In this document: piece by piece, positions 3,100-5,706 of the stretch
Numbering within the stretch: position 1 is the first letter of the stretch
Layout of the letters: each line of letters begins with the position of its first letter
The notes under the pieces: generated by a model
Database searches by the model: none
What the model saw: only the letters and a program-made list of their open reading frames with translations
Told to the model about the DNA's origin: nothing
Program-made: the position numbers and the translations under genes
Sequence record: MN022785.1
Source of the DNA: Escherichia phage VEc20
DNA: 64,000 nucleotides
Direction: 5' to 3' (one strand)

Positions 3100-3561
3100 T
3101 TATTTGATTTGTTTAGCAGACCAAATGCGGTCTTTGATGATTTTTTGGAGGTCTTCAACATACTCTAGGTCATGAGCATGTGGATTATCTTTGAAACTAT
3201 GAGCTCGCGCAAGTTTCTGGCCTTCGGTCTTAATTATCAAAAGTTCTTTAAGAATTGCTTCATACCTAGAGATAATTCCTTTAGCAATATTTTTTTCTTG
3301 TGCTGCTTTAGGGTCAGCCTTAGGAGCAGGTTTACCAGAAGGTTTTTCGAAAGCCGCGCCAGTAGCAACCAGGCTTTTCCAGGCGGTGGTAACATAGTTA
3401 CCCACAAAGCCTTCAGCTCTCATATCGTCGTAGAACTTGTACCGAGATTCGTCAGAAGCATCTTTATAAGAATATTTACCAGCTTTAATAGCAGCAGTTG
3501 CTACAGCGCGAACATCTGAAGCGGATGCTTCGGTCATTAAAAATTGAGCATAAGTTTTCAT
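3100..3561 (-). CDS. internal-protein-like late protein with capsid-targeting-type N-terminus (MKTYAQFLMTE)
   Basis: 153 aa; AGGAAA RBS; own late promoter TATAAATA upstream and rho-independent terminator downstream; N-terminus resembles T4 IP leader MKTYQEFIAE. Confidence 0.65.
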   Translation of the reverse strand: MKTYAQFLMTEASASDVRAVATAAIKAGKYSYKDASDESRYKFYDDMRAEGFVGNYVTTAWKSLVATGAAFEKPSGKPAPKADPKAAQEKNIAKGIISRYEAILKELLIIKTEGQKLARAHSFKDNPHAHDLEYVEDLQKIIKDRIWSAKQIK

Positions 3562-3589
3562 TGTTATTTCCTGTGTTAATTAACTCATC

Positions 3590-3597
3590 TATTTATA
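3590..3597 (-). promoter_or_regulatory. T4 late promoter TATAAATA (gene 3100..3561)
   Basis: plus-strand tatttata; AGGAAA RBS and ATG 29 nt downstream on minus. Confidence 0.6.
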
Positions 3598-3598
3598 C

Positions 3599-3627
3599 TA
3601 AAAAGCCCCAACCTTTCGATCGGGGCT
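3599..3627 (-). terminator. rho-independent terminator ending the tRNA/stable-RNA transcription unit
   Basis: minus-strand hairpin GCCCC...GGGGC followed by TTTTT, then the late promoter. Confidence 0.6.
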
Positions 3628-3674
3628 AAGCCTTGCGGCAACCTTGTCGGGGTTCCACCTGCTAAGGCAAGTGT

Positions 3675-3840
3675 TTGTACGAAACGCCGGGATTCGAACC
3701 CGGTTATTAAGTAGTTGACGCTACTCAATATTTTTAAAAGGCCATATCTCGACCATATCCGAACGTTCCGTCAAAAACGCTACTCGGCTTACGGCAAAGA
3801 TATTTCCTCGAATCGATAATTCGGTGCGCCGTTTCTGCTG
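3675..3840 (-). ncRNA. tRNA-like stable RNA (T4 species 1/2-like); boundaries approximate
   Basis: minus-strand T-arm CCGGG-TTCGAAT-CCCGG followed by acceptor-like CGTTTCG; complementary GAAACG about 150 nt upstream; no ORF. Confidence 0.35.
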
Positions 3841-3934
3841 TGATAGTAAAGAGCCAGAACACAGTAAAACTGTGGGAGGAAACTATACTCCAGGGAACAT
3901 CAGTCCGACGACTTACCGGTAGCGACCCGGTTTC

Positions 3935-4285
3935 TTAATATTCTTTTAAAGAATCAATATATTCACGGCGTTTACGCCACAAATCAATTGCTTCATACGC
4001 GGATTCAGCATTTCGAATTAGCCGGCATTTATGTAAAGACTTATGATTTTGATATTGTGTAGATAACGGAATTGTATCTAAAAGGTCTTTACGATCAAAA
4101 TATTCGTAACCATCTAAACCAAATGAACGATTTTTGAGAAATTGCCAATGACCATATTCGTTTTCGACATAAACATAATCTGCATGCTGATAAAGCAAAT
4201 TAATTACACGTTCAGAAATAACAGTATCATTATGATTAAAATAGAATGTTAAATCATGAACTACTAAATAAACATTACCTTTCAT
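3935..4285 (-). CDS. hypothetical protein (116 aa) embedded between tRNA-Arg and the stable RNA
   Basis: ORF with GAGGAAAAT RBS directly before ATG; no recognisable motif. Confidence 0.6.
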   Translation of the reverse strand: MKGNVYLVVHDLTFYFNHNDTVISERVINLLYQHADYVYVENEYGHWQFLKNRSFGLDGYEYFDRKDLLDTIPLSTQYQNHKSLHKCRLIRNAESAYEAIDLWRKRREYIDSLKEY

Positions 4286-4303
4286 ATTTTCCTCACTTAT
4301 AAT

Positions 4304-4379
4304 TGGTCGAGGCAGTAGGGATCGAACCTACGACCTAGGACTTAGAAGGTCCTTGCTCTTCCTTCTGAGCTATGCCCCG
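4304..4379 (-). tRNA. tRNA-Arg (anticodon TCT)
   Basis: hand-folded cloverleaf: acceptor CGGGGCA/TGCCTCG, anticodon loop CTTCTAA, T-arm GTAGG-TTCGATC-CCTAC, CCA encoded. Confidence 0.85.
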
Positions 4380-4383
4380 TAAT

Positions 4384-4459
4384 TGGGGTGACCGATGGGA
4401 GTCGAACCCATGACTACGAGAATCACAATCTCGAGTTCTACCAACTGAACTACGGCCAC
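4384..4459 (-). tRNA. tRNA-His (anticodon GTG)
   Basis: acceptor GTGGCCG/CGGTCAC, anticodon stem CGAGA/TCTCG loop TTGTGAT, T-arm ATGGG-TTCGACT-CCCAT, CCA encoded; no encoded G-1. Confidence 0.7.
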
Positions 4460-4573
4460 ATTAATACCTACTCCAACAATCAAGATGTCTTCACACGAAA
4501 TTAAGAGAAGAGTGATCAGTTCAACCCCTATAATCGCGTCAAGTAGATATTAATGTGACAGTTGTCACAAATT

Positions 4574-4648
4574 TGGCGGACGTGATAGGATTCGAACCTA
4601 TAACCAATCGCTTAACAGGCGATCGCTCTGCCATTGAGCTACACATCC
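4574..4648 (-). tRNA. tRNA-Asn (anticodon GTT)
   Basis: acceptor GGATGTG/CACGTCC, anticodon stem ATCGC/GCGAT loop CTGTTAA, T-arm ATAGG-TTCGAAT-CCTAT, CCA encoded. Confidence 0.8.
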
Positions 4649-4652
4649 AAAT

Positions 4653-4739
4653 TGGTGGGGAGTGGTGGAGTCGAACCACCCGAGTCGCAATGACAATGAA
4701 TTTACAGTCCACACCGCTACATCTACGGGATAACTCCCC
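4653..4739 (-). tRNA. tRNA-Tyr (anticodon GTA), class II with long variable arm; D-arm fold uncertain
   Basis: acceptor GGGGAGT/ACTCCCC perfect, T-arm GGTGG-TTCGACT-CCACC, anticodon loop CTGTAAA with G-U-containing stem, 87 nt. Confidence 0.55.
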
Positions 4740-4748
4740 AAATTAATT

Positions 4749-4823
4749 TGGTGGCCCTGGGTGGAATTGAACCACCATCTGGCGATTATGAGTCGCTTGC
4801 TTGAACCTTCCAGCTACAGGGCC
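4749..4823 (-). tRNA. tRNA with anticodon CAT (Met-type; probably the T4-like lysidine-modified tRNA-Ile)
   Basis: acceptor GGCCCTG/CAGGGCC, anticodon loop CTCATAA, T-arm GGTGG-TTCAATT-CCACC, CCA encoded. Confidence 0.8.
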
Positions 4824-4824
4824 T

Positions 4825-4900
4825 TGGTGCTGATTGACGGAATCGAACCGCCGACCTTCTCATTACAAGTGAGTTGCTCTACCTACTGAGCTAAATCAGC
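4825..4900 (-). tRNA. tRNA-Thr (anticodon TGT)
   Basis: acceptor GCTGATT/AATCAGC, D-arm GCTC-AGTAGGTA-GAGC, anticodon loop CTTGTAA, T-arm GGCGG-TTCGATT-CCGTC. Confidence 0.85.
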
Positions 4901-4905
4901 AAAAC

Positions 4906-4995
4906 TGGCGGAGGCGATAGGATTTGAACCTATGAGTCGCCGGAGCGACTGCCGGTTTTCAAGACCGGTGCATTAAACCACTCTGCCACGCCTCC
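4906..4995 (-). tRNA. tRNA-Ser (anticodon TGA), class II
   Basis: acceptor GGAGGCG/CGCCTCC, anticodon stem CCGGT/ACCGG loop CTTGAAA, long variable arm, T-arm ATAGG-TTCAAAT-CCTAT. Confidence 0.85.
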
Positions 4996-4997
4996 AG

Positions 4998-5071
4998 TCT
5001 CCGTGGCAGGATTTGAACCTACGACATTCTGCTCCCAAAGCAGACGCTCTACCAAACTGAGCTACACGGAG
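4998..5071 (-). tRNA. tRNA-Pro (anticodon TGG); CCA not encoded
   Basis: acceptor CTCCGTG/CACGGAG, anticodon stem TCTGC/GCAGA loop TTTGGGA, T-arm GTAGG-TTCAAAT-CCTGC. Confidence 0.8.
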
Positions 5072-5081
5072 TAAATTAAAT

Positions 5082-5155
<74 letters not shown>

Positions 5156-5160
5156 AAATT

Positions 5161-5247
5161 TGGTGCGAGAAGTGGGACTCGAACCCACAAGGAAATCATT
5201 CCGCAGCATTTTAAGTGCTGTGCCTTTACCAATTTGACCATTCTCGC
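5161..5247 (-). tRNA. tRNA-Leu (anticodon TAA), class II
   Basis: acceptor GCGAGAA/TTCTCGC, anticodon stem CAGCA/TGCTG loop CTTAAAA, T-arm GTGGG-TTCGAGT-CCCAC, 87 nt. Confidence 0.85.
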
Positions 5248-5248
5248 G

Positions 5249-5321
5249 CTGGGAATAAAGGACTCGAACCTTTGCATCTAGCAGTCAAAGTGCTATGCCT
5301 TACCAACTTGGCTAATTCCCA
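5249..5321 (-). tRNA. tRNA-Gln (anticodon TTG); CCA not encoded
   Basis: acceptor TGGGAAT/ATTCCCA (U1-A72), anticodon stem TAGCA/TGCTA loop CTTTGAC, T-arm AAAGG-TTCGAGT-CCTTT. Confidence 0.8.
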
Positions 5322-5418: not shown

Positions 5419-5706
5419 TTACCATTTATGATAATACGTATTTACGATACATTCAAGACCCAAAGGATTCTTGAAAATATTATATTCAAGAGGACCTTTT
5501 TCCGTTTCAATAAAGAAATCAAAGTTAACTGTGTTAAATTTACGGTCTTCCTTCACTAATTTAACTTGAGAAGATGAACGGTCAATGTAAACCTTTTCAA
5601 CTTCAAAACAGGTTAAAATGCCATAATCATCAATCAAGGCTTTAGCTGCTTCTTGATCATATTTATATCCATTTTCAATGGATGATACTTTAGCATAAAG
5701 AATCAT
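5419..5706 (-). CDS. hypothetical protein (95 aa)
   Basis: ORF track; start overlaps stop of upstream ORF (coupled); no recognisable motif, no capsid-targeting leader. Confidence 0.55.
   Translation of the reverse strand: MILYAKVSSIENGYKYDQEAAKALIDDYGILTCFEVEKVYIDRSSSQVKLVKEDRKFNTVNFDFFIETEKGPLEYNIFKNPLGLECIVNTYYHKW

Follow-up and report, generated by a model that had tools for sequence, protein, structure and literature searches.

Orthologs of the T4 species 1 and species 2 RNAs in Escherichia phage VEc20 and a covariation-supported, tRNA-like fold for rnaC

Two small RNAs at the 3' end of the tRNA array

What lies downstream of the transfer RNA (tRNA) gene array of Escherichia phage VEc20? 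In the 64,000-nucleotide (nt) stretch of its DNA that we analyzed (sequence record MN022785.1; "the window" below), two small RNAs occupy this place on the minus strand: positions 3816–3678 are the ortholog of rnaC of phage T4, and positions 3938–3823 are the ortholog of T4 rnaD. Both are small stable T4 RNAs that have been on record since the 1970s. The T4 reference genome (NC_000866) annotates rnaC as "species 1 RNA" (70908–71046) and rnaD as "species 2 RNA" (71053–71171), right after tRNA-Arg, and phage RB27 annotates the equivalent features as rnaC and rnaD. The rnaC segment of the window matches its T4 counterpart over the full length with 138/139 identities; the rnaD segment is nearly identical to T4 over its 5'-terminal 46 nt and its 3'-terminal 25 nt and has diverged in the middle. 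A preliminary description of positions 3675–3840 had read this place as the counterpart of the T4 species 1 and 2 RNAs that follow the tRNAs, and the T4 annotation together with the two alignments shows that interpretation to be correct. Its further suggestion that the same molecule might extend to about 3930 does not hold, as 3938–3823 is a separate second RNA. The locus is laid out as follows.

Positions 4304–5321, minus strand: upstream array of 11 tRNA genes (called by ARAGORN; Rfam confirms 10 of the 11)
Positions 3823–3938, minus strand: rnaD, the homolog of T4 species 2 RNA (alignment to T4 rnaD)
Positions 3817–3822, minus strand: 6-nt spacer GAAUUA between rnaD and rnaC (T4 annotation and alignment)
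Positions 3678–3816, minus strand: rnaC, the homolog of T4 species 1 RNA, 139 nt (T4 alignment, covariance model and folding energy)
Positions 3628–3673, minus strand: 3' trailer leading from rnaC to the terminator (conserved in T4)
Positions 3598–3627, minus strand: intrinsic terminator with a 10-base-pair (bp) GC-rich stem and a U run, which closes the tRNA–rnaD–rnaC transcription unit

The ends given here for rnaC are those annotated in T4. The gene lies on the tRNA strand, 3' of both the tRNA cluster and rnaD, and the order of rnaD, 6-nt spacer, rnaC, trailer and terminator downstream of the tRNAs is that of T4. The two phages differ in that rnaD directly follows tRNA-Arg in T4, whereas a 116-amino acid (aa) open reading frame (ORF) intervenes in the window, and in that the middle of the window's rnaD is T2-type, not T4-type. 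A covariance model scores rnaC at 160.6 bits (expect value, E, ~1e-35) on the minus strand versus 11.9 bits on the plus strand, and its folding energy is −50.2 kcal/mol (z = −4.6). As the preliminary description had stated, the region holds no credible ORF: only ORFs of 24–47 aa with TTG or GTG starts overlap it. The surrounding 371 nt (3960–3590, minus strand) match ~760 phage records at 80–99.7% identity, nearly all of them from Tequatrovirus and close relatives, so the window is DNA of a Tequatrovirus, a T4-like phage. The rnaC match itself is present in ~750 phage records.

rnaC and rnaD are thus already known, annotated features of the T4 genome and ordinary in a T4-like phage; our analysis contributes a corrected acceptor stem, a covariation-backed fold with a putative kissing interaction, and the range of the family. 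In T4 infection, Northern blots have confirmed both RNAC and RNAD as discrete late RNAs, RNAC as a stable species of ~140 nt (PMC9697503), and the roles of both are stated as unknown (PMC9697503, PMC3014915, PMC12685909). Our searches of the accessible literature for a published function of rnaC returned nothing beyond "unknown function." Many phage GenBank records leave the rnaC/rnaD region unannotated or place it under a "hypothetical protein" coding sequence (CDS); such CDSs over rnaC and rnaD are very likely misannotations.

rnaC is a four-way junction with a tRNA-like minihelix

How does rnaC fold, and is the fold conserved among relatives? rnaC is a tRNA-like four-way junction composed of an acceptor stem, a long arm, a 10-bp arm and a T-arm. 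Its parts, in 5' to 3' order along the RNA, are the following.

Positions 3809–3815, minus strand: acceptor 5' strand CGAUUCG (pairs with 3686–3680; compensatory changes)
Positions 3739–3808, minus strand: long arm, ~22 bp of irregular hairpin interrupted by internal loops and by a 3-nt bulge that is conserved (covariation)
Positions 3769–3774, minus strand: loop 1, UUGACG, which caps the long arm, the putative 5' kissing partner (exact complement, covariation)
Positions 3731–3738, minus strand: A-rich single-stranded linker UUUAAAAA, from the long arm to arm 2 (conservation in the MAFFT alignment)
Positions 3705–3730, minus strand: arm 2, a 10-bp hairpin (double changes at 8–10 of its 10 pairs)
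Positions 3715–3720, minus strand: loop 2, CGUCAA, in arm 2, the putative 3' kissing partner (exact complement, covariation)
Positions 3687–3703, minus strand: T-arm CCGGG-UUCGAAU-CCCGG (sequence; two of its five stem pairs covary)
Positions 3680–3686, minus strand: acceptor 3' strand CGUUUCG (sequence and pair tables)
Positions 3674–3679, minus strand: 3' tail and trailer UACAAA, at the discriminator and CCA position (conserved as U-NCA-A)

Support for this fold comes from RNAalifold and from explicit pair counts over its 50 pairs, compared with slid controls and with 500 shuffles. In a MAFFT alignment of 16 sequences, 90.7% of cells are paired (39–49% in the slid controls), with double changes at 28 of the 50 pairs. 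A model-based alignment of 38 distinct sequences gives 91.9% paired cells (36–45% slid) and double changes at 31/50 pairs, and one of 21 sequences that includes the divergent copy of Klebsiella phage JD18 gives 91.4% (35–45% slid) and 37/50; for all three alignments, 0 of 500 shuffles reached the observed value. The covariation comparison with other phages that the preliminary description had proposed returns a four-way junction. Model-based alignments are biased toward the structure of the model; the MAFFT alignment was fitted without structure and gives the same signal, which is thus independent of the model-based alignment. G·U pairs are frequent in the rnaC pair tables; together with the difference in model score between the strands and the lack of a credible ORF, they support a product that works as RNA, from the minus strand.

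The long arm carries much of this signal. Double changes affect 18 of the 19 pairs above its 3-bp base among the 38 sequences, and two very different sequence types adopt the same fold. The 3-bp base does not vary in those 38 sequences, and two of its pairs are changed on both sides only in JD18. In the linker UUUAAAAA, the A run and the U that follows it are invariant or nearly so in the MAFFT alignments.

The tRNA-like end of the molecule consists of the T-arm (3703–3687) and the acceptor-like CGUUUCG (3686–3680), both of which had been recognized in the preliminary description. The partner of CGUUUCG is the 5' end of rnaC itself: CGAUUCG and CGUUUCG form five Watson–Crick pairs and two U·U mismatches (4:69 and 5:68). 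Every rnaC homolog found by BLAST walking keeps a local 5' strand, CG[A/G]U[U/C]CG, just ahead of the long arm. Pair 3:70 alternates between A-U (the T4 type) and G-C in many genera, and the U·U positions 4:69 and 5:68 become U-A and C-G in Tegunavirus and U-A and A-U in Jiaodavirus. The 3' tail reads U-ACA in the window; U-CCA is encoded in Marfavirus and Jiaodavirus, and most genera have U-ACA or U-UCA. In T4 the annotated mature end of rnaC falls after the UA of UACAAA (..GUA). In some Kanagawavirus and Winklervirus copies (e.g., CIP9 and LC53) the T-loop is noncanonical, UGCAUGC or UGCAUCC, and the rest of the T-arm is conserved.

Two apical loops are complementary and change together

In 39/39 distinct sequences, loops 1 and 2 are exact reverse complements of each other. 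Most genera, the window included, carry the pair UUGACG/CGUCAA. Both loops have changed in step in three lineages: to UUGGCG/CGCCAA in Marfavirus, to UUGAUG/CAUCAA in Tegunavirus and to UUGCAG/CUGCAA in Jiaodavirus. Because each of the two hairpin stems covaries independently, the complementarity of the loops points to a kissing contact rather than to an alternative helix. It indicates a predicted 6-bp contact between UUGACG and CGUCAA, which may form within one molecule or between two. If within one, the 3-nt bulge and the internal loops of the long arm are candidate hinges for its folding back.

Hairpin loops of 6–7 nt that are complementary over their whole length are also found in the HIV (human immunodeficiency virus) TAR–TAR* and ColE1 RNA I–RNA II complexes, and such fully paired loop–loop complexes are sterically feasible. 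The rnaC loops differ from these in that both lie in one RNA, beside a tRNA-like minihelix. We found no description of a kissing contact in rnaC in the accessible literature, a search that covered papers other than those of the 1970s.

rnaC is a tRNA-sized cassette of T4-like phages

How widespread is rnaC? By BLAST walking we found it in Gaprivervirus, Mosigvirus, Dhakavirus (VR25), Tegunavirus and Kanagawavirus, and further in Karamvirus, Moonvirus, Winklervirus, Gelderlandvirus, Marfavirus and unclassified relatives. The family spans at least 13 genera of T4-like enterobacterial phages and usually lies in or beside tRNA arrays. A scan of IMG/VR with the covariance model recovered 20 homologs, and a scan of metagenomes added 12 more, all with known loop haplotypes. 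Klebsiella phage JD18 (Jiaodavirus) has a divergent copy at 4154–4300 that only the covariance model detected (81.7 bits), both BLAST and the pattern scan having missed it; it begins 5 nt after tRNA-Pro, has a perfect 7-bp acceptor stem and encodes a U-CCA end. Copies of the JD18 type are carried by 138 Jiaodavirus records.

Outside these phages the family was not recovered where we looked. The rnaC DNA pattern had zero matches in 185,579 bacterial and archaeal genomes, and a model search with filters off through the tRNA arrays of two T4-like phages, AS4 of Aeromonas and Rgz1 of Morganella, gave no rnaC, only tRNAs at 20 bits or less. Rfam returned no family for the locus, either with the whole window at gathering scores or with positions 3500–4350 and the JD18 copy at E up to 10; the sole Rfam match at rnaC is a subthreshold one to tRNA-Sec (17 bits, E 2.2).

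The position of rnaC relative to its neighbors varies among genera.

Between tRNA-Trp and tRNA-Gly: Karamvirus, Gelderlandvirus and Erwinia phage COW86c
Between tRNA-Met and tRNA-Gly: Moonvirus
Between tRNA-Phe and tRNA-Trp: Winklervirus
After tRNA-Pro: Jiaodavirus
Before tRNA-Trp: Tegunavirus

The spacing to the neighboring tRNAs is 4–8 nt in Karamvirus, Gelderlandvirus, Moonvirus, Winklervirus, Jiaodavirus and Tegunavirus. Lying only a few nucleotides from flanking tRNAs, rnaC appears to act as a tRNA-sized cassette that would be processed along with them. It is also a cassette that comes and goes: in phage IME08 (Dhakavirus, 695–930), rnaD runs straight into the trailer and terminator and rnaC is precisely absent, whereas VR25 of the same genus has it, which argues for gain or loss of the whole unit. 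The trailer (3628–3673 in the window) is kept in IME08, directly 3' of rnaD, and could be yet another element that is structured or serves processing.

rnaD and its surroundings

The second RNA, homologous to T4 rnaD and placed immediately 5' of rnaC, consists of two hairpins. The 5' hairpin (3931–3915) has 5 bp and a 7-nt loop, with one covarying pair; the long hairpin has an invariant base, in which GUCGUCG pairs with CGGCGCAC, and a tip that is hypervariable yet paired. Over the structure as a whole, 93.8% of cells are paired, compared with 30–52% in slid controls, and nine pairs show double changes. We considered whether rnaD might be a degenerate tRNA, given its tRNA-like slot and its end in ..CACC(A), and rejected this: it has no T-arm and is built as a hairpin plus a long hairpin. 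In a published evolution experiment, every line of a T4-like phage that was adapting to a semipermissive Escherichia coli acquired one convergent single-nucleotide polymorphism (SNP) in rnaD (PMC12685909), which hints that the locus affects host-specific fitness. On the plus strand, positions 3915–3931 (the rnaD 5' hairpin) and an adjoining T-rich run score as an intrinsic-terminator-like site.

Several features of the neighborhood deserve mention in their own right. The 116-aa ORF between tRNA-Arg and rnaD (3935–4285, minus strand) belongs to PHROG 3355, is without a Pfam match, and overlaps the first bases of rnaD with its stop codon. EcNP1, ACG-C40 and ST0 share this arrangement; T4 and RB27 have nothing at this place. 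A T4 late-promoter motif, TATAAATA, stands at 3590–3597 (minus strand), directly after the U run of the terminator, and is followed by an ORF at 3561–3100 (PHROG 2280). PHROG and Pfam searches placed the flanking ORFs in families of unknown function only. Another late-promoter motif lies upstream of the tRNA array, at 5667–5660.

Within the array, ARAGORN calls a tRNA-Tyr(GUA) at 4653–4739 (minus strand) that is absent from the Rfam tRNA matches at gathering score; in phage Pet-CM3-4 the first tRNA of the array, also with a GTA anticodon, is annotated "tRNA-Pseudo-GTA." According to a 2026 paper, the tRNA-Tyr of phage T6 counters the Septu defense. A 114-nt gap (4460–4573, minus strand) splits the array between tRNA-Asn and tRNA-His; it opens with a perfect hairpin, GUGACA-AC-UGUCAC, and matched neither a tRNA nor the rnaC model. 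The tRNA at 4749–4823 (minus strand), labeled tRNA-Met(CAU) by ARAGORN, occupies the slot of T4 tRNA-Ile, whose gene likewise has a CAU anticodon; it is probably an AUA-reading tRNA-Ile.

Discussion

How might rnaC be made, and what might it do? rnaC and rnaD would be cotranscribed with the tRNA array, with transcription stopping at the terminator. rnaC would then be excised by the tRNA-processing machinery, a step suggested by its minihelix, in which a 7-bp acceptor stem stacks on a T-arm of canonical form. The 5' end would be generated by RNase P, and the 3' end would arise from a cut at the next tRNA or in the trailer followed by exonuclease trimming; the minihelix, the 4–8-nt spacing to tRNAs and the processing of T4 tRNAs all favor this route. 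Species 1 RNA is also reportedly cut by RNase III in vitro. In the mature molecule, the irregular ~70-nt hairpin and the 10-bp hairpin would take the place of the D and anticodon arms, and their apical loops would pair. The minihelix would serve processing and stability, and the kissing module together with the A-rich linker would form a specific surface.

Comparison with known tRNA-like RNAs places this architecture in context. Like tRNA (RF00005), rnaC has a 7-bp acceptor stacked on a 5-bp T-stem with the 7-nt loop UUCGAAU, a four-way junction, tRNA-like spacing in arrays and, in some genera, a U-CCA end. Unlike tRNA, it has neither a D-arm nor a 5-bp anticodon arm with a 7-nt loop; its arms of ~70 nt and 26 nt are predicted to kiss, the arm-2 loop has 6 nt, and the total length is 139 nt. 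At 3678–3816 ARAGORN made no tRNA call, and no RF00005 match appeared at E up to 10. Transfer-messenger RNA (tmRNA, SsrA) is likewise a stable RNA with an acceptor and T-arm minihelix, in which a large insertion replaces the anticodon arm, and with tertiary pairing of the pseudoknot type. It is processed by RNase P, as rnaC presumably is. rnaC differs from it in having no tag reading frame, no G3·U70 and, in the window phage, no encoded CCA; neither ARAGORN nor Rfam reported a tmRNA at the locus. YrlA RNAs, bacterial Y-RNA-like tRNA mimics that tether Rsr/Ro60, resemble rnaC in concept: they are noncoding RNAs in which tRNA-like and long helical modules are joined, as reportedly described by Chen et al. 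in 2014, and they are handled by tRNA enzymes. The kissing-loop module sets the rnaC architecture apart from YrlA, and no Rfam match to any YrlA or Y RNA family was obtained at E up to 10.

Could the region instead form a single tRNA-like RNA of ~160–260 nt that spans rnaD and rnaC and closes through GAAACG (3835–3830) and CGUUUC (3686–3681), as the preliminary description envisaged? The 6-nt complement does exist, ~145–150 nt upstream as described; the energy-only minimum fold of the whole 351-nt region pairs it with CGUUUC, and the pairing might form transiently in a dimeric precursor. However, T4 has two separate RNAs with their boundary between the two segments, and rnaC homologs in most genera occur without an upstream rnaD or GAAACG and close on a local 5' strand with compensatory changes. 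GAAACG is invariant even in IME08, which has rnaD and not rnaC, so its conservation serves rnaD itself; moreover, a 6-mer complement turns up by chance within ~200 nt in ~5% of cases. The comparative data thus reject the long-range acceptor pairing: GAAACG belongs to rnaD, there are two RNAs, rnaC closes on its own 5' end, and the single-molecule fold is highly improbable. A still smaller, practically negligible probability attaches to the idea that the region codes for small proteins, as the "hypothetical protein" annotations imply. ORFs of 42 and 47 aa (GTG or TTG starts) do overlap, and a CDS is annotated in many records, but the substitutions are compensatory within RNA helices, with many G·U pairs, the T4 RNAs have been mapped and detected on Northern blots, and the 47-aa ORF reads through the terminator.

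Two further alternatives accept the RNA and dispute its role. rnaC might be functionless, a degenerate tRNA relic or a cis-acting element for operon processing or stability, and accumulate only because the processing enzymes take it for a tRNA. Its constant linkage to tRNA genes, its 3'-terminal place in the operon of T4-type phages, its dispensability in the laboratory and its precise absence from IME08 would all fit. Yet in at least 13 genera compensatory change has preserved the structure, the sequences of loops and linker, which lie outside RNase P recognition, are invariant, the putative tertiary contact covaries, the Kanagawavirus copy sits between two ORFs, and 70 nt of covarying extra arm would not be expected to persist in a relic; we regard this reading as unlikely. 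Alternatively, rnaC could be a chargeable, CCA-bearing tRNA-like molecule that is aminoacylated, binds the ribosome or acts in the manner of tmRNA. The perfect 7-bp acceptor and U-CCA of Jiaodavirus, the U-CCA of Marfavirus and the canonical T-arm of most copies speak for it; against it stand the U-ACA or U-UCA of the window and most genera, the ..GUA end annotated in T4, a 3:70 pair that is A-U or G-C and never G3·U70, and the lack of a tag ORF, of an ARAGORN tmRNA call and of an Rfam tRNA or tmRNA match. This leaves only a slight chance for charging. By comparison, the account given above (rnaC and rnaD as orthologs of the T4 RNAs, tRNA-type processing, the four-way fold and a presumed action in trans) is, taken as a whole, highly probable, its part on the action in trans much less so; the analysis shows the identity, the strand, the fold, the loop–loop covariation and the linkage of rnaC to tRNA genes, and the processing enzymes and the role in trans are inferred.

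Several points nevertheless weigh against that account. The exact ends of rnaC are borrowed from the T4 annotation. The two U·U mismatches in the acceptor of most copies, the noncanonical T-loop of some Kanagawavirus and Winklervirus copies and the UACA rather than NCCA at the window's 3' end each weaken a strict tRNA-mimic view, and if arm 2 is the equivalent of the anticodon arm, its loop would be taken up by the kiss, which argues against mimicry of an anticodon loop. An intramolecular kiss requires the ~22-bp arm to fold back onto the 10-bp arm. T4 mutants from which the tRNA region has been deleted grow on laboratory strains; any role of rnaC would accordingly be conditional, and a decoy or mimic role is itself conjecture.

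With these reservations, our best guess is that rnaC may work in trans by mimicking a tRNA and so binding or titrating a tRNA-binding factor of host or phage, for instance as a decoy in their contest over tRNAs, an idea that we consider possible rather than probable. More doubtful is the broader proposal that rnaC represents a widespread, phage-only class of tRNA mimics, locked by the kiss or dimerized, that acts as a decoy for or inhibits a host tRNA-binding factor (e.g., a tRNA-targeting defense nuclease or a processing or translation factor).

What does the comparative structure of rnaC offer to the biology of T4-like phages? Because so many records are unannotated or misannotated here and Rfam has no family for the RNA, a covariance model would improve the annotation of hundreds of genomes. 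The structure also provides testable handles: the minihelix, the two covarying arms, the compensated kiss, the A-rich linker and the array cassette. It is timely, as phage tRNA clusters are now being reinterpreted as counter-defense loci. If the proposal of a mimic class is true, the CCA-ended forms of Jiaodavirus and Marfavirus might enter tRNA pathways, and the class would give the 50-year-old "species 1 RNA" a function in counter-defense.

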